IMG/VR virus record: IMGVR_UViG_2713896898_000002
Coordinates: 1 to 13,233 of that record
Direction: 5' to 3' (one strand)
DNA: 13,233 bases
Origin: a virus
Lineage: Duplodnaviria > Heunggongvirae > Uroviricota > Caudoviricetes
Shown here one piece after another: positions 1 through 9,519 of this stretch. The position numbers and the translations under genes were made by a program. The first letter of the stretch is position 1. The number at the start of each line of letters is the position of its first letter. Under the pieces are notes generated by a model. The model saw only the letters and a list, made by a program, of their open reading frames with translations, ran no database searches and was not told the DNA's origin.

Positions 1-57
1 GGGCTGATGACTCGCCGTGAGATTGAGCGTGAAGTCTGTTTATGGGGGCAACAATGA
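1..57 (+). CDS. 3' end of an upstream lysis-cassette gene (probably the endolysin), partial
   Basis: Frame 1 is open from base 1 to a TGA at 55-57 ([18 protein letters not shown]). Its stop overlaps the Rz start as ATGA, the usual endolysin-Rz junction in lambdoid lysis cassettes. The C-terminus does not match lambda R as I recall it, so the family is unassigned. Confidence 0.4.
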
Positions 58-521
58 GCAGAGTTACCGCGATTATCTCCACACTGGTTATCTGCATCAT
101 CGTCTGCCTGTTGTTGGCTGTTAATCATTACCGTGATAACGCCATCTCCTACAAAGAGCAGCGTGACAAAAACGCCAGAGAGTTGAAGCTGGCGAACGCC
201 ACCATCGCTGACATGCAGCAGCGTCAGCGTGATGTTGCTGTGCTCGATGCAAAGTACTCGAGAGAATTAGCCAATGCGAAAGCTGAAAATGAAACTCTGC
301 GCGCTGATGTTGCCGCTGGTCGTAAGCGCCTGCGGGTCAATGCCAGTTGCTCCGCAGCCGTGCGTGAAGCCACCGGACCCACCCGCGTGGATAATGCAAC
401 CAGCCCCCGACTGGAAGACACCGCTGAACGGGATTATTTCACCCTCAGAGAGCGGCTGATGACGATGCAGATGCAACTGGAAGGGGCACAGGAGTATATC
501 CGCACTCAGTGCATTAAGTAG
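54..521 (+). CDS. Rz: i-spanin (Rz), inner-membrane spanin subunit
   Basis: Translation [49 protein letters not shown]... has an N-terminal transmembrane segment followed by a coiled-coil periplasmic domain and is near-collinear with lambda Rz as recalled. ATG 54 overlaps the upstream stop; ATG 42 (MGATMSRV...) is an alternative start. Confidence 0.9.
274..459 (+). CDS. Rz1: o-spanin (Rz1), outer-membrane lipoprotein, embedded in the +1 frame of Rz
   Basis: 61-aa ORF lying wholly inside Rz in another frame. It has a signal peptide with lipobox LVVSAC and a proline-rich mature region ([32 protein letters not shown]) very similar to lambda Rz1 as recalled. Confidence 0.9.
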
Positions 522-563
522 CCTTTTTATCGTGGTAAACATTTCGCAGGGTATGAGGTATTT

Positions 564-914
564 ATGCCATCACTAATCCCACGCGCCTGCCGTAAGCGTG
601 GATGTGCAGGCACAACAACAGACAGTTCTGGTTACTGCGATAAACATCGTGGCGAAGGATGGGTACAGCATCAACGCGGACTGAGTCGCCACCAGCGTGG
701 CTATGGCTCGAAATGGGATGCCATACGTGCGCGCATACTGAAGCGTGATAATCATCTGTGTCAGAACTGCCTGCGCAATGGGAGAGCCGTTGAAGCCAGA
801 ACGGTGGACCACATCATTCCGAAAGCTCATGGTGGCACGGATGCAGACAGTAACCTGCAGAGTCTGTGCTGGCCCTGCCATAAAGCAAAAACAGCGCGCG
901 AACGCATCAATTGA
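564..914 (+). CDS. HNH endonuclease, terminase-associated (HK97 gp74-like)
   Basis: 116-aa protein with N-terminal Cys pairs (CRKRGC...YCDKH) and a C-terminal HNH motif (DHIIPKAHGG...NLQSLCWPCH). It sits directly upstream of the small terminase gene, as in HK97-like phages. An SD-like GAGGT lies 6 nt before the ATG. Confidence 0.9.
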   Translation: MPSLIPRACRKRGCAGTTTDSSGYCDKHRGEGWVQHQRGLSRHQRGYGSKWDAIRARILKRDNHLCQNCLRNGRAVEARTVDHIIPKAHGGTDADSNLQSLCWPCHKAKTARERIN

Positions 915-1062
915 TAACAGTTCCCATCTGCAGGGGAGGGGCGGGTCAAATCTCTGCAACCCAGGCTGCTCAGGACCGCCGCCTGACCCTTCCTCACATC
1001 GCCGCAGGTTCGAAAACTTTTTTTTGGAAATGTGATTAAACGATTGATAGGTAAAACCGATT
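915..1062. other. Candidate cos / packaging-initiation region between the HNH and small terminase genes
   Basis: 148-bp non-coding gap, the only sizeable one in the packaging module, with a G-rich tract (gcaggggaggggcgggtc), GC-rich direct-ish repeats (ccgccgcctg / cgccgcagg) and a T8 run at 1018-1025. The position matches where cos lies in HK97-like genomes. Positional inference only; no cos sequence was recognised. Confidence 0.3.
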
Positions 1063-1584
1063 ATGCCAGGACCCCCGAAAACCCCGCCACGCCTGCATTT
1101 GATACGAGGCAACCCAAAACCCCCGCCACGCCTGCATTTGATACGAGGCAACCCCTCAAAACGCCCCGTTAAAGACCCCAAAAAAACCGCTAAAAAGGAT
1201 GAAAAAGGTCTCCCTAAAATTCCGCAACATTTAGGGGCACAGGGGAAGTACTGGTTCAGGCGAATGGCGGAAGAATTGAATGCGGAAGGGATCATTTCTC
1301 AGCTTGATGCGCGTGCACTCGAGTTACTGGTGGAAGCCTACACCGAATACCGGCATCACTGCGAAACACTCGATGTTGAGGGTTATACCTACCGCACGGA
1401 AACGCAGAATGGCGATGTGATGATCAAGGCACATCCGGCTGCGGCGATGAAGGCGGATGCCTGGAAGCGGATCCGGGCGATGCTTGCAGAGTTTGGTATG
1501 TCACCGGCAAGCCGGGCTAAAGTAAATACCGCCGGACCGGATGATGTTGATCCACTGGCAGAGCTTTTAAAAGCGAGAGACTGA
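1063..1584 (+). CDS. Terminase small subunit (P27 family-like)
   Basis: 173-aa protein with the N-terminal motif L(H/K)LIRGNPSKRP typical of P27-family small terminases, followed by a basic region and a C-terminal helical domain. Its stop overlaps the large terminase start as TGATG. The N-terminal motif is present twice (see repeat). Confidence 0.85.
   Translation: MPGPPKTPPRLHLIRGNPKPPPRLHLIRGNPSKRPVKDPKKTAKKDEKGLPKIPQHLGAQGKYWFRRMAEELNAEGIISQLDARALELLVEAYTEYRHHCETLDVEGYTYRTETQNGDVMIKAHPAAAMKADAWKRIRAMLAEFGMSPASRAKVNTAGPDDVDPLAELLKARD
1077..1154 (+). repeat. Two-copy 39-bp tandem direct repeat inside the 5' end of the small terminase gene
   Basis: The 34-nt core ccccgccacgcctgcatttgatacgaggcaaccc occurs at 1082-1115 and again at 1121-1154 (period 39 bp, in frame). 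It encodes the duplicated peptide (T/P)PPRLHLIRGNP(K). Confidence 0.9.
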
Positions 1585-3341
1585 TGGCAAAAGTGGCTGA
1601 CGGGATCCGCTACGCCGAACGTGTTGTTGCAGGAGAAATTGTTGCTGGCGAATTTGTCCGTCTGGCCTGCCAGCGTTTTCTTGATGATCTGAAGTACGGC
1701 GAAGAGCGGGGGATTTATTTCAGTGAACCCCGTGCACAACACATCCTGAATTTCTATAAATTTGTGCCTCATGTAAAAGGGGCGCTGGCAGGCCAGCCCA
1801 TTGAGTTGATGGACTGGCATGTATTTATCCTCATTAATATTTTTGGCTTTGTCATTCCGCTGGTAAATGAAGAGACCGGGGAAGTTGTCATGCGCAGCGA
1901 TGGCAGCGGACGCCCGGTGATGGTGCGCCGGTTCCGGACGGCCTACAACGAAGTTGCCCGTAAAAACGCAAAATCAACCCTGTCATCGGGTATCGGCCTG
2001 TATATGACGGGGGCAGATGGTGAAGGCGGTGCTGAGGTGTATTCAGCCGCAACCACGCGTGACCAGGCCAGAATTGTGTTTGAAGACGCCAAAAATATGG
2101 TCAGAAAAGCCCGGTCGACACTCGGGCGATTGTTTGATTTCAACAAGCTGGCGATCTACCAGGAGCAGAGCGCATCAAAATTTGAACCGCTTTCCTCGGA
2201 TGCAAACAACCTGGACGGTCTGAACATCCACTGCGCCATTATTGATGAGCTGCATGCACATAAAACCCGCGACGTGTGGGACGTTCTGGAAACGGCAACC
2301 GGTGCCCGTCTGCAGTCCCTGTTATTTGGCATCACCACGGCTGGCTTTAACAAGGAAGGGATTTGTTACGAGCAACGCGATTACGCCATCAAGGTATTGC
2401 GAGGCTATAACAGCGACGTGGAGGGCGCGGTAAAAGACGACTCCTACTTTGCAATTATTTACACGCTCGATGAGGGAGATGATCCGTTTGATGAAACGGT
2501 CTGGCAGAAAGCGAATCCGGGCCTGGGCATCTGTAAGCGCTGGGATGATCTGCGTCGTCTGGCGAAAAAGGCGAAGGAGCAGGTCTCGGCGCGGGTGAAT
2601 TTTTTCACGAAACACATGAATGTGTGGGTCACTGCCGAATCTGCCTGGATGGACATGATTAAGTGGGAGAAGTGCGAATACATTGCTCCACAGCATGAGC
2701 TGAAAACATATCCCATGTGGGTCGGTGTAGACCTTGCTCATAAGATTGATATCTGTGCGGCGGCAAAACTCTGGCGAACCGATAACGGACATGTTCATGC
2801 CGATTTTAAATTCTGGCTTCCGGAAGGACGGCTGGAGCGGTGCTCGCGGCAGATGGCGGAGCTTTACCGGAAATGGGCGGAGATGGATAAGCTTATCCTG
2901 ACGGATGGTGATGTTATCGATCATGCTCAGATAAAAAGTGATTTACTGGAATGGATTGGTGGTGAAAACCTCAGGGAACTGGGATTTGACCCGTGGAGCG
3001 CAATGCAGTTCAGTCTGGCGCTGGCTGAAGAAGGGATACCGCTGGTGGAAGTTCCGCAGACGGTCCGCAATCTGTCAGAGGCCATGAAGGAAACGGAATC
3101 ACTGGTCTATGCCGGGCGTTTCCATCACAGCAATCACCCGGTTATGAACTGGATGATGTCTAACGTTACGGTAAAACCGGACAAAAACGACAATATCTTC
3201 CCGAATAAATCCACGCCTGAAGCCAAAATCGACGGCCCTGTTGCGCTTTTTACGGCCATGAGCCGCTTTCTGGTAAATGGCGGGGACGTGAATGACTTTC
3301 TGTCCACGCTTGATCCTGATGAGGACCTGTTAATTCTGTGA
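1584..3341 (+). CDS. Terminase large subunit
   Basis: 585-aa ORF in the expected position and of typical size. It carries a Walker A-like ATPase motif (the GADGEGG region) and a C-terminal nuclease-type region, and is start-coupled to the small terminase. Confidence 0.93.
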   Translation: MAKVADGIRYAERVVAGEIVAGEFVRLACQRFLDDLKYGEERGIYFSEPRAQHILNFYKFVPHVKGALAGQPIELMDWHVFILINIFGFVIPLVNEETGEVVMRSDGSGRPVMVRRFRTAYNEVARKNAKSTLSSGIGLYMTGADGEGGAEVYSAATTRDQARIVFEDAKNMVRKARSTLGRLFDFNKLAIYQEQSASKFEPLSSDANNLDGLNIHCAIIDELHAHKTRDVWDVLETATGARLQSLLFGITTAGFNKEGICYEQRDYAIKVLRGYNSDVEGAVKDDSYFAIIYTLDEGDDPFDETVWQKANPGLGICKRWDDLRRLAKKAKEQVSARVNFFTKHMNVWVTAESAWMDMIKWEKCEYIAPQHELKTYPMWVGVDLAHKIDICAAAKLWRTDNGHVHADFKFWLPEGRLERCSRQMAELYRKWAEMDKLILTDGDVIDHAQIKSDLLEWIGGENLRELGFDPWSAMQFSLALAEEGIPLVEVPQTVRNLSEAMKETESLVYAGRFHHSNHPVMNWMMSNVTVKPDKNDNIFPNKSTPEAKIDGPVALFTAMSRFLVNGGDVNDFLSTLDPDEDLLIL

Positions 3342-3499
3342 AACAGCTTATTACTGATATGACCGGGCTGATCGGTTTCGGTCTGCTCACTGCTGGCGTT
3401 TATCTGTATGCAGGTCTGCCAGCGTCTCTGATGTTGTCTGGCTGTTTGTTGCTGCTTTATGCACTGGTGGTGTCCATGAGGAGAAAACATGCTTCTTGA
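3338..3499 (+). CDS. Small hydrophobic ORF (53 aa from GTG 3338; 46 aa from ATG 3359), putative membrane protein
   Basis: Below the 60-aa cutoff of the ORF track. Translation VKQLITDMTGLIGFGLLTAGVYLYAGLPASLMLSGCLLLLYALVVSMRRKHAS* suggests two hydrophobic helices and a basic C-tail. GTG 3338 overlaps the large terminase stop as GTGA (coupling-type junction), and the 3' end overlaps the portal start by 11 nt. It fills an otherwise unexplained 147-nt gap. Confidence 0.35.
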   Translation: MKQLITDMTGLIGFGLLTAGVYLYAGLPASLMLSGCLLLLYALVVSMRRKHAS

Positions 3500-4715
3500 T
3501 GCTCTGTTTCGCAGTGAGCCTCTGGAAAATCCCTCGATTCCGGTAACCGGAGAGGCCGCTGAGACGGATAATATTTTTGCCCGGGAAGTGTATGTCAGTC
3601 CGGAAACATCCATGAAGCTGGCTGCTGTCTATGCCTGTATTTATGTTATTTCATCCAGTGTGGCTCAGATGCCCCTGCATGTGATGCGAAAAACGAATGA
3701 GCATGTTCAGCCGGCACGCGATCATCCGTTGTTCTGGCTCGTTCATGATGAACCTAATGCCTGGCAGACCAGCTATAAGTGGCGGGAACTGAAGCAGCGT
3801 CATGTGCTGGGGTGGGGCAATGGTTATACGTGGGTAAAACGCAATCGTCGTGGCGAGGTTACCAGCCTTGAATGCTGTATGCCATGGGAAACCACGTTAC
3901 TTAACACCGGTGGGCGTCATACTTACGGGGTGTATAACGAAGAGGGGGCATTTGCGGTAAGTCCGGACGACATGATCCATATCAGGGCGCTGGGAAACAA
4001 TCAGAAAATGGGACTGAGCCCGATCATGCAGCATGCTGAAACCATTGGTATGGGAATGAGTGGCCAGCAGTATACCAGCGCCTTTTTTAACGGTAATGCC
4101 CGTCCTGCCGGTATTATTTCTGTGAAAAATGAACTGAACGAACAGAGCTGGGGCAGGCTTAAAAATATGTGGCAGCGGGCGGTGACAGCGCTTCGCAGCC
4201 AGGAAAATAAAACCATGCTGCTGCCTGCGCAACTGGATTACCGCGCTCTGACAGTTTCTCCGGTGGATGCTCAGATCATTGATATGACCAAGCTGAACAG
4301 GTCGATGATTGCCGGGATTTTTAATGTCCCGGCGCACATGATTAATGACCTGGAAAAAGCCACATTTTCGAATATTACGCAGCAGGCGATTCAGTTTGTT
4401 CGCTACACGATGATGCCCTGGGTTGCGAACTGGGAGCAGGAGCTTAACCGTCGCCTGTTTACCCGTACAGAACGGGCTGCCGGGTATTACGTTCGTTTCA
4501 ACCTCACGGGGTTGCTCCGTGGGACCCCACAGGAGCGTGCGCAGTTCTATCACTTTGCCATTACAGATGGCTGGATGAGCCGGAATGAAGCCAGGGCATT
4601 TGAGGATATGAACCCGGTTGACGGTCTGGATGAAATGCTGGTCAGCGTAAATGCAGCAAATCCGTTGAATAACTTTAAAGATACAAAAGGCAAAGAGGAA
4701 AAGAACGATGAATGA
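3489..4715 (+). CDS. Portal protein (HK97 family)
   Basis: 408-aa ORF directly after the large terminase, of the size and character of HK97-family portals. SD AGGAG at 3478-3482 precedes the ATG; the 3' end overlaps the protease gene. Confidence 0.93.
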   Translation: MLLDALFRSEPLENPSIPVTGEAAETDNIFAREVYVSPETSMKLAAVYACIYVISSSVAQMPLHVMRKTNEHVQPARDHPLFWLVHDEPNAWQTSYKWRELKQRHVLGWGNGYTWVKRNRRGEVTSLECCMPWETTLLNTGGRHTYGVYNEEGAFAVSPDDMIHIRALGNNQKMGLSPIMQHAETIGMGMSGQQYTSAFFNGNARPAGIISVKNELNEQSWGRLKNMWQRAVTALRSQENKTMLLPAQLDYRALTVSPVDAQIIDMTKLNRSMIAGIFNVPAHMINDLEKATFSNITQQAIQFVRYTMMPWVANWEQELNRRLFTRTERAAGYYVRFNLTGLLRGTPQERAQFYHFAITDGWMSRNEARAFEDMNPVDGLDEMLVSVNAANPLNNFKDTKGKEEKNDE

Positions 4716-7726: not shown

Positions 7727-8067
7727 GGGAAGCCACACTGTATTCCCTGCTGTCTCAATTGGCCGGAGGACAGGTTTATCCTTATGTGGTCCCGCTGACG
7801 GAGGGAAAGCCTGCGGTATCTCCGCCGTGGCTGGTGTTTTCTGTGGTGTCTGACACGGCGTCTGATGTGCTTGATGGTCAGGCTGAATCCAGAATTACCG
7901 TGCAGATCGATGTCTGGGCAACGGTGCCTGATGACGCAGATGATATCCGAGAACAGGCGCTTGATGCGGTAAGGCAACTTGTACCCTCCGTTATTTCTAA
8001 AACGCAGGGTTATGATCCTGATTCCCGTCTGAGCAGAGCCACGCTTGAATTTCAGGTAATAGCCTGA
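7723..8067 (+). CDS. Tail terminator / tail completion protein (DUF3168-like)
   Basis: 114-aa ORF immediately upstream of the major tail gene. The pattern ...LYSLLS...VYPYVVP...PWLVFSVVSD...ITVQIDVWA... resembles the DUF3168 family. Confidence 0.6.
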   Translation: MREATLYSLLSQLAGGQVYPYVVPLTEGKPAVSPPWLVFSVVSDTASDVLDGQAESRITVQIDVWATVPDDADDIREQALDAVRQLVPSVISKTQGYDPDSRLSRATLEFQVIA

Positions 8068-8087
8068 GGTCGTTAATGATTTTACCC

Positions 8088-8114
8088 ACCCGCCGCTGGC
8101 GGGTTTTTTATTTT
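8088..8114 (+). terminator. Intrinsic terminator-like hairpin upstream of the major tail gene
   Basis: Stem acccgcc (8088-8094), loop gct, stem ggcgggt (8098-8104), then TTTTTTATTTT (8104-8114). It sits between the tail terminator stop and the major tail SD. Confidence 0.55.
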
Positions 8115-8126
8115 CAGGAGACGAGT

Positions 8127-8831
8127 ATGTCCTCTAATTTTGAGCGTTCGCAACTGACGAAAATTATGATTTCGTCTGCACCGGTAACAGCAGAAACCCT
8201 GGATTCTGCCAGCTATCTTGGCCTGAGCTGTACAATCAAAGAGGTGCAGTTTACCGCAGGACAAAAGCAGGATATTGATGTCACCACGCTGTGTTCTGTT
8301 GAGCAGGAAAATATTAACGGTCTTGGTGCCGCGTCAGAGATTTCCATGTCAGGCAACTTTTACCTCAATGCTGCCCAGAACGCGTTGCGCAGTGCCTATG
8401 ACAATGACACCACGTATGGCTTTAAAGTTATTTTTCCGTCAGGAAACGGATTTACCTTTATGGCAGAGGTGCGTCAGCATACCTGGTCTGCAGGAACCAA
8501 TGGTGTTGTGGCTGCAACGTTTTCCCTGCGCCTGAAAGGTAAACCTGTGCTGATGACAGAGCCGCTGAAAGTGAAGGTCGATTTAAACAGCACGCTGCAG
8601 GTTTCTGCCGGAGCGAAACTCGAAATGATGGTTGAGGCTGCCGGTGGTGTGCCGCCTTATTCTTATGCCTGGAAAAAAGGTGGTTCTCCTGTTTCCGGAC
8701 AGACGGCGGCAACGTTCAGTAAGGCATCAGCAGCATCCGGTGATGCGGGTGCGTATACCTGCGAGATTTCTGATTCAGCAAGCCCGGTTAACAAAGTGAC
8801 CTCCACTTCCTGCACTGTTACCGTCAGTTAA
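8127..8831 (+). CDS. Major tail protein with C-terminal Ig-like domain
   Basis: 234 aa from ATG 8127, with SD AGGAG at 8116-8120. The track ORF start at 8076 would read through the terminator hairpin and is rejected. The C-terminal ~85 residues (KVKVDLNSTLQVSAGAKLEMMVEAAGGVPPYSYAWKKGGSPVSG...GAYTCEISDSA...VTVS) have an Ig-like signature, as seen on lambda gpV and other siphovirus tail-tube proteins. Confidence 0.85.
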   Translation: MSSNFERSQLTKIMISSAPVTAETLDSASYLGLSCTIKEVQFTAGQKQDIDVTTLCSVEQENINGLGAASEISMSGNFYLNAAQNALRSAYDNDTTYGFKVIFPSGNGFTFMAEVRQHTWSAGTNGVVAATFSLRLKGKPVLMTEPLKVKVDLNSTLQVSAGAKLEMMVEAAGGVPPYSYAWKKGGSPVSGQTAATFSKASAASGDAGAYTCEISDSASPVNKVTSTSCTVTVS

Positions 8832-8845
8832 TGAGGATAGATGTG

Positions 8846-9217
8846 ATGACTAAAAATATCCGTAATCTGGCACTGGCAACGATGTCGGGGTTTCGCCATA
8901 AAACTGTTGATGTGCCTGAATGGGAAGGGGCAACGGTTGTGTTACGGGAACCTTCTGCAGAAGCCTGGTTGCGCTGGCAGGAGATCGTTAAAGCAAAAGA
9001 TGATGAGACACCGTTATCCGTTGCGGAGCGCGCCCGCCGAAATCTGGAGGCGGACGTTGAACTGTTCATTGATGTTCTGTGTGATACCGGGCTGCAACCT
9101 GTATTTTCAGAGGATGATCGTGAACAGGTGATTGCCGTGTATGGCCCGGTGCATGCACGGCTTCTTCGCCAGTCTCTGGAACTGATCAGTGATGCCGGAG
9201 AGGTTAAAAAAAAGTAG
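8846..9217 (+). CDS. Tail assembly chaperone (gpG-like), zero-frame product
   Basis: ORF directly after the major tail gene, ending ...AGEVKKK* at TAG 9215-9217. SD GAGGA at 8834-8838 precedes ATG 8846; ATG 8831 is an alternative start. The position and acidic character fit gpG-like chaperones. Confidence 0.8.
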   Translation: MTKNIRNLALATMSGFRHKTVDVPEWEGATVVLREPSAEAWLRWQEIVKAKDDETPLSVAERARRNLEADVELFIDVLCDTGLQPVFSEDDREQVIAVYGPVHARLLRQSLELISDAGEVKKK

Positions 9218-9519
9218 CGCTTCCGGGGATGCGTTTTCTGATGATGCTGGCGCTCAGGATGGGGCGCACATTGTCAGAGTTACGCCGGGAAATGTCCGCA
9301 TCAGAAATCATGATGTGGGCAGAATTTGACAGGTTCAGCCCGCTGGGGGACGAACGGGCTGATATCCGGGCTGCCCAGATTGTTTCAGCTGTTTACGGTG
9401 CGCAGGGGGTCAAAGTGCCACTGAATGATGCGCTTCTTCAGTGGGAGCAGGAGCAGACAGAAGGCGCCTCAGATCCATTTGCCGGACTGGAAAACGCGCT
9501 TTTAATAGTGTCTCAGTGA
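8846..9519 (+). CDS. Tail assembly chaperone GT fusion (gpGT-like), produced by -1 frameshift at 9208-9214
   Basis: After a -1 slip the reading continues ...GEVKKK-VALPGMRFLMMLALRMGRTLSELRREMSASEIMMWAEFDRF... to TGA 9517-9519. The G/GT frameshift pair directly upstream of the tape measure gene is a conserved feature of long-tailed phages. Confidence 0.75.
9208..9214 (+). promoter_or_regulatory. -1 programmed ribosomal frameshift slippery heptamer A_AAA_AAG
   Basis: In the G frame the last codons are GTT AAA AAA AAG TAG. The heptamer A AAA AAG (9208-9214) is the same slippery motif as in E. coli dnaX. The -1 frame has a TAA at 9205-9207 just before the site and is then open to 9519. Confidence 0.75.

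Follow-up and report, generated by a model that had tools for sequence, protein, structure and literature searches.

Introduction

HK97 is the best-studied of the cos phages associated with an HNH endonuclease. Its small terminase (TerS) possesses a disordered N-terminal arm that folds on the DNA, with Arg7 entering the minor groove (PDB 6z6e; PMC11331095). In phage lambda, the small-terminase binding sites known as the R sites of cosB are direct repeats located near cos. Direct repeats are also left behind by draft genome assembly, and an overlap between contig ends that remains unmerged and is interrupted by a one-base gap has been described for the LINKS scaffolder (PMC8352505).

The DNA analyzed here, hereafter the window, is a stretch of 13,233 nt assigned to the Caudoviricetes (IMG/VR record IMGVR_UViG_2713896898_000002). 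It shares with the HK97-like module the gene order HNH endonuclease, small terminase (terS), large terminase (terL), portal, S78 protease and major capsid, and its terS is found in a genomic setting similar to that of the HK97 small terminase, although the two proteins have no detectable homology. An earlier note on this DNA described an in-frame tandem duplication at the beginning of terS and offered several readings of it, among them a recent mutational event, an error of assembly and a set of terminase-binding sites. The evidence presented below indicates that this 39-nt “tandem duplication” is very probably an artefact of scaffolding or gap closing in a short-read draft. The 39-base repeat is almost certainly neither a real duplication nor of biological interest, and the locus that carries it is an ordinary, widespread packaging module of E. 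coli prophages.

The Packaging Module and Its Small Terminase

The identification of the gene as a P27-family small terminase, made beforehand from the sequence alone, is confirmed by two curated models, PF05119 (Terminase_4; 91.1 bits for a cut-off of 24.7) and TIGR01558 (107.4 bits for a cut-off of 45.6), and the ORF also matches phrog_83, “terminase small subunit.” Its rank in the gene order given above is that of the family, and it does lie directly 3′ of the presumed packaging region, preceded by the HNH gene and a short intergenic region (Table 1). The peptide that appears twice was likewise correctly recognized as the conserved N-terminal signature of the family: G-N-P-S-K-R is invariant in 20 aligned relatives, and the pattern (K/R)PT.L..L.GNPGKRP is found repeatedly, at residues about 5-25, among 150 family representatives (clusters at 50% identity). 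Both the family assignment and the N-terminal motif are correct and ordinary.

The AlphaFold model of the protein has a mean pLDDT of 66, with a helical core predicted over residues 59-143; residues 1-50 have block means of 45-51 and neither helices nor strands. Sequence and profile searches for solved relatives in the PDB returned nothing below E = 0.1 and did not recover the HK97 TerS, and Foldseek against the PDB returned nothing below E = 0.2. By analogy with the HK97 protein, the basic, proline-rich N-terminal arm of the TerS encoded in the window may contact DNA.

Minor features of the family and of the gene were also observed. Many P27-family proteins (e.g., P0026 and P0030) exhibit a weak internal likeness of 6/9 positions between residues 3-11 and 33-41 (GPPKTPxHL vs. 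GVPPTPKHF), which may be the trace of an ancient repeat or just the outcome of a Pro/Lys-rich composition. Three loci (L023, L030, and L051) have CCA at Pro17 of terS.

Table 1. Features of the terS locus, with positions in the window, and the sequences that distinguish the two-copy from the single-copy arrangement.
Feature	Positions	Strand	Remarks
HNH endonuclease gene, upstream of terS	564-914	+	PF01844, E = 1.9e-16
HNH-terS intergenic region, 148 nt, presumed cos	915-1062	.	cos by gene order only
Small terminase (terS) ORF as printed	1063-1584	+	173 aa; PF05119 residues 62-160, TIGR01558 residues 53-164
Unit 1, codon register	1078-1116	+	KTPPRLHLIRGNP; proposed left-contig end (through 1115) and gap position 1116
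Exact 34-mer, copy 1	1082-1115	+	repeat family D1
Gap position	1116..1116	.	N in record, A in window; unit junction
Unit 2, codon register	1117-1155	+	KPPPRLHLIRGNP; proposed right-contig start
Exact 34-mer, copy 2	1121-1154	+	first base of an independent Logan contig (run DRR017177) is 1121
Large terminase gene	1584-3341	+	PF03354 and PF20441
Two-copy junction sequence in printed text			GATACGAGGCAACCCNAAACCCCCGCCACGC
Two-copy junction k-mer			GATACGAGGCAACCC[ACGT]AAACCCCCGCCACGC
Single-copy junction sequences			GGACCCCCGAAAACCCCGCC and GGCAACCCCTCAAAACGCC
Single-copy k-mers			GGACCCCCGAAAACCCCGCCACG and GAGGCAACCCCTCAAAACGCCCC
Sequence pair for the two terS alleles			AAAACCCCGCC and AAACCCCCGCC

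The Repeat and the Gap in the Source Record

As a description of the printed text, the earlier account of the repeat is accurate. Reading of the window sequence finds two identical 34-mers offset by 39 nt, and Tandem Repeats Finder reports an array at 1074-1154 (period 39, 2.1 copies, 95% matches, score 148), which is the sole array of the window with a score >50. An exact repeat of 34 nt at a spacing of 39 nt in 13 kb is far beyond chance. In codon register, the two units differ at 1081/1120 (A/C, Thr to Pro) and at 1116/1155 (A/C, synonymous); when 1117-1154 is compared with 1078-1115, 37/38 bases are equal (34 of them in the exact stretch), the mismatch being at 1120. The repeat is in frame with the 173-aa ORF, the N-terminal peptide is indeed doubled in its translation, which reads MPGPPK-TPPRLHLIRGNP-K-PPPRLHLIRGNP-SKRP, and the N-terminus of the printed product is MPGPPKTPPRLHLIRGNPKPPPRLHLIRGNPSKRP....

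The source of the window was located through its exact 585-aa TerL protein, to which 12 contigs matched. The public record BBVH01000056.1 (GCA_001514625.1, a draft E. coli assembly) equals the window base for base except at position 1116, where the record has an N and the window an A (base-by-base comparison; L102, L120). The 13,233-nt contig contains no other N, and this one falls on the junction between unit 1 and unit 2, where the record reads ...GGCAACCC N AAACCCCCGCC.... By our own arithmetic, a single N would land within the 5-nt junction by chance with a probability of about 5/13,233 = 4e-4. The deposited record thus has what a scaffolding artefact leaves behind, namely a gap character at the junction of the copies and, to its right, a recurrence of the sequence found to its left (37/38 bases). 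Ambiguous bases seem to have been converted to a normal base during preparation of the window, which masks assembly gaps. The evidence says that the repeat is present in the deposited text and absent from the genome, and that the base at its junction was never called.

BBVH01000056.1 is nonetheless annotated with a 173-aa gene at 1063-1584. No exact match to the 173-aa TerS was found in a collection of 15 billion proteins, an absence that fits with the ambiguous codon in the record. The exact product of the 1072-aa tape-measure ORF of the window is not on record either, in this case because the record calls a 1070-aa product with a later start.

Single-Copy Alleles in the Same Prophage and in Its Relatives

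Nine other contigs encode an identical 585-aa TerL; they belong to BBWD, BBVZ, three more NCBI drafts and four Logan assemblies. Eight of them cross the site (L119, L121, L122, L123, L124, L125, L106, and L107), and each has one copy of the unit and a 160-aa TerS, so that assemblies of the same element made independently lack the repeat. The ninth, a Logan contig of DDBJ run DRR017177 (L108), starts at window position 1121 and aligns to 1121-3855 at 100%. This start fits an artefact and a real duplication alike, since a real 34-nt repeat would also cause a break at k = 31.

Deletion of one unit leaves 2 differences between the window and L121 or L122 in about 12,800 positions (1120 and 8468), and a single one, again 1120, between the window and L107 in 3,414 positions; on the left side, window positions 1-1115 are 100% identical to L101/L119. 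Position 1120 is located four bases past the N. A bad contig end is a far more economical explanation than a true duplication that would, in addition, have picked up a Thr-to-Pro substitution next to its junction, in an element otherwise altered at no more than one site in about 12.8 kb.

The sister record BBWD01000054.1 (L119), which bears the same accession-series prefix, also contains exactly one N in this prophage, at L119:8707, within a GC-rich hairpin equivalent to window positions 8087-8103. A spurious 14-nt direct repeat lies on either side of this N (CCCGCCGCTGGCGG N CCCCC CCCGCCGCTGGCGG); together with the C's miscalled right after the N, it gives the segment L119 8688-8726 a false insertion of 20 nt when compared with the window and with L121. 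A third record of the series, BBVZ01000040.1 (L106), has no N in the part read. The same gap signature is thus found in an assembly of the same prefix, at the one further gap examined, and such an error, recurring at a second, independent gap, implicates the assembly pipeline. A literature search on the accession prefixes gave no identification of the assembler or pipeline of the project.

Beyond these close copies, the terS region is present in 926 of 5,426 complete E. coli genomes (about 17%), with up to 4 matching places per genome. The best 60 of the 927 matching E. coli records have spans of 220-223 nt for a 261-nt query, that is, one copy. A 45-nt query centered on the junction, which is unable to seed on single-copy alleles, had no match in the 5,426 complete genomes, and the two-copy pattern, defined as two copies of a 14-mer from the repeat unit, was absent from IMG/VR and from 185,579 GTDB representative genomes. 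One copy each was found in 97 loci gathered around a 26-mer core (96 from IMG/VR and phage phi467), and 11/11 matching phage records align in two pieces, with a total span about 39 nt short of that of the query. A fully called and independently reproduced junction, as a genuine tandem duplication would have, was not encountered in these searches.

The proteins agree with the DNA. All 270 family proteins inspected (120 cluster representatives and 150 at 50% identity) have a single motif, so that the possibility, raised in the earlier note, of finding two copies in homologues did not materialize; no N-terminal internal repeat exceeding 6/9 residues exists among them, and the window protein has 9/9. 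The alignments of nearly all homologues begin at query residues 14-18, leaving the first unit as an overhang. The TerS proteins of relatives measure 153-167 aa when full length, and the printed protein, 13 aa longer, exceeds them all, an excess that we attribute to the artefact.

Matches to the two-copy pattern in metagenomes were limited to three and were rejected as unrelated tandem repeats with periods of 45 and 51 nt. These long repeats, located at 13560-13899 of L002, 1-140 of L004 and 1-170 of L003, are unrelated to terminase and share the 14-mer CGCCTGCATTTGAT by chance.

Origin of the Repeat

Of the readings offered in the earlier note, assembly error is the one that gains support, from the N on the junction, from the lack of a second copy in elements that are otherwise identical, and from the same signature in a sister assembly, all of which are directly observed. 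As to the exact assembler step, we infer that two contigs truly overlapping by about 38 nt were left unmerged. The left contig would end at 1115 and the right contig would start at 1117, with a wrong or foreign base at 1120; a join across the smallest possible gap, a single N at 1116, would make the overlap appear twice and yield a period of 38 + 1 = 39. That 39 is a multiple of three would be a one-in-three coincidence, by which the ORF would stay open, and the writing of the N as an A when the window was prepared would have hidden the gap. The real gene would then be that of an ordinary 160-aa P27-family small terminase with a single N-terminal LxLIRGNPSKRP motif; a length of 483 nt (160 aa) is the most likely one for the real terS.

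The C at 1120 would stem from a miscall at the end of a contig or from a second, related prophage of the same genome that has the Thr7Pro allele. This allele (AAACCCCCGCC) occurs naturally in L054 (IMG/VR 2531839667_000014), one of the 97 loci, in which the sequence at codon 7 of terS is identical to the left edge of unit 2 of the window. If the strain harbored another prophage copy of slightly different sequence, the graph could have branched at 1120 and a foreign base could have been placed on the right contig; a miscall of the kind found in the sister assembly explains the C equally well. The locus resembles the artefact described for LINKS in its single N between equal flanks, in the lack of the repeat from independent assemblies and in the second example under the same prefix. 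It departs from that artefact in that the overlap has one mismatch (1081 vs. 1120), hence the appeal to a poor contig end or to a second allele.

It is unlikely that the repeat is instead a real, very recent in-frame duplication of 39 bp confined to one strain and generated by slippage or by unequal exchange between co-resident prophages, with the N as nothing more than a base left uncalled at a genuine junction and a TerS bearing two arm motifs. Such a duplication would account for the ORF staying open, as an in-frame repeat is equally expected of a real, tolerated duplication, and the N nearby could have been left by a low-k de Bruijn graph that a real 34-nt repeat had broken. The C at 1120 is also that of the natural allele of L054, and the combination of a left parent of the L055/L089 type with a right parent of the L054 type gives the window sequence except for one mismatch, at the N position; the several terS-region places of some E. 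coli genomes show that partners for unequal exchange exist. Moreover, AlphaFold predicts no structure with confidence for residues 1-50, where an insertion might be tolerated. Against all this, the only N of the contig sits exactly on the duplication junction, the sister assembly has an N and a flanking spurious repeat at another site, the otherwise identical elements are all single-copy with their only terS difference 4 nt from the N, and no second two-copy instance came out of any collection searched. Recombination between the natural alleles (L055/L089 and L054) fits numerically and was set aside as unnecessary once the N had been found. The proposal of a recent slipped-strand or recombination event altering the protein is consequently unsupported, given the single copy in relatives and the N on the junction. 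We consider it very doubtful that there exists a P27-family TerS with two tandem invariant basic arm motifs, one of them carrying Thr7Pro, in a prophage that is otherwise intact; if true, it would provide a natural test of the effects of arm length and copy number on cos recognition.

Still another suggestion, that the direct repeats act as small-terminase binding sites by cos in the manner of the lambda cosB R sites, appears extremely improbable. The repeat does lie about 20-90 nt 3′ of the presumed cos-containing intergenic region, and the HK97 TerS site is located 15-29 bp downstream of the cos cut (PMC11331095). However, the HK97 site is a single 15-bp site and not a repeat array (PMC11331095), and relatives of the window are single-copy (97 viral/phage loci; best 60 of 927 E. 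coli records), which leaves no conserved array. The likeness to the R sites holds in the window text only: here the repeats are coding, encode a motif whose conservation at the protein level extends to distant genera, are not conserved as repeats in relatives and are probably not real. Comparison of the units with the upstream region revealed solely inverted repeats of 16-18 nt with 75-78% complementarity (929-946 vs. the units). By our own binomial estimate, about 5 such inverted repeats are expected by chance per 500 nt, and they were rejected as a signal; several conserved copies of a motif in the non-coding cos region, as in cosB, were not found. If the repeat is artefactual, the question of binding repeats does not arise.

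With the scaffolding artefact as the preferred reading, the locus illustrates how the conversion of a single source N into a normal base made a scaffolding gap with duplicated flanks resemble an in-frame duplication of a conserved motif. Gene callers were affected likewise and log a 173-aa terminase for BBVH01000056.1. Screening for the positions of N in source records, together with direct repeats flanking them, would remove such false findings.

Other Features of the Window

Within the HNH-terS intergenic region, the most conserved block among 66 distinct relatives is found at 997-1030 (CATCGCCGCAGGTTCGAAAACTTTTTTTTGG) and contains a T8 tract. By analogy with the A-tract site of HK97, this block is a candidate cos or TerS recognition element.

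Further downstream, a 53-aa ORF without Pfam match (3338-3499) reaches from the end of terL into the beginning of the portal gene, and is called in several, not all, related contigs. Between the tail-completion gene, which ends at 8067, and the major tail gene, positions 8087-8109 form a terminator-like hairpin, CCCGCC-GCT-GGCGGG followed by T6. The mechanically called ORF (8076-8831), with its start at 8076, runs through this hairpin; the ATG at 8127, which is preceded by AGGAG and opens the 234-aa product annotated in L119 and L121, seems to be the true start of the major tail gene. The -1 frameshift that gives rise to the G-T tail chaperone fusion usually takes place at the end of the Phage_TAC_1 gene. 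In the window, the end of this gene (8846-9217) bears an A8 run at 9203-9217 (GGTTAAAAAAAAGTAG), before the Phage_tail_T ORF (9241-9519), and this run is a putative -1 frameshift site for the G-T fusion.
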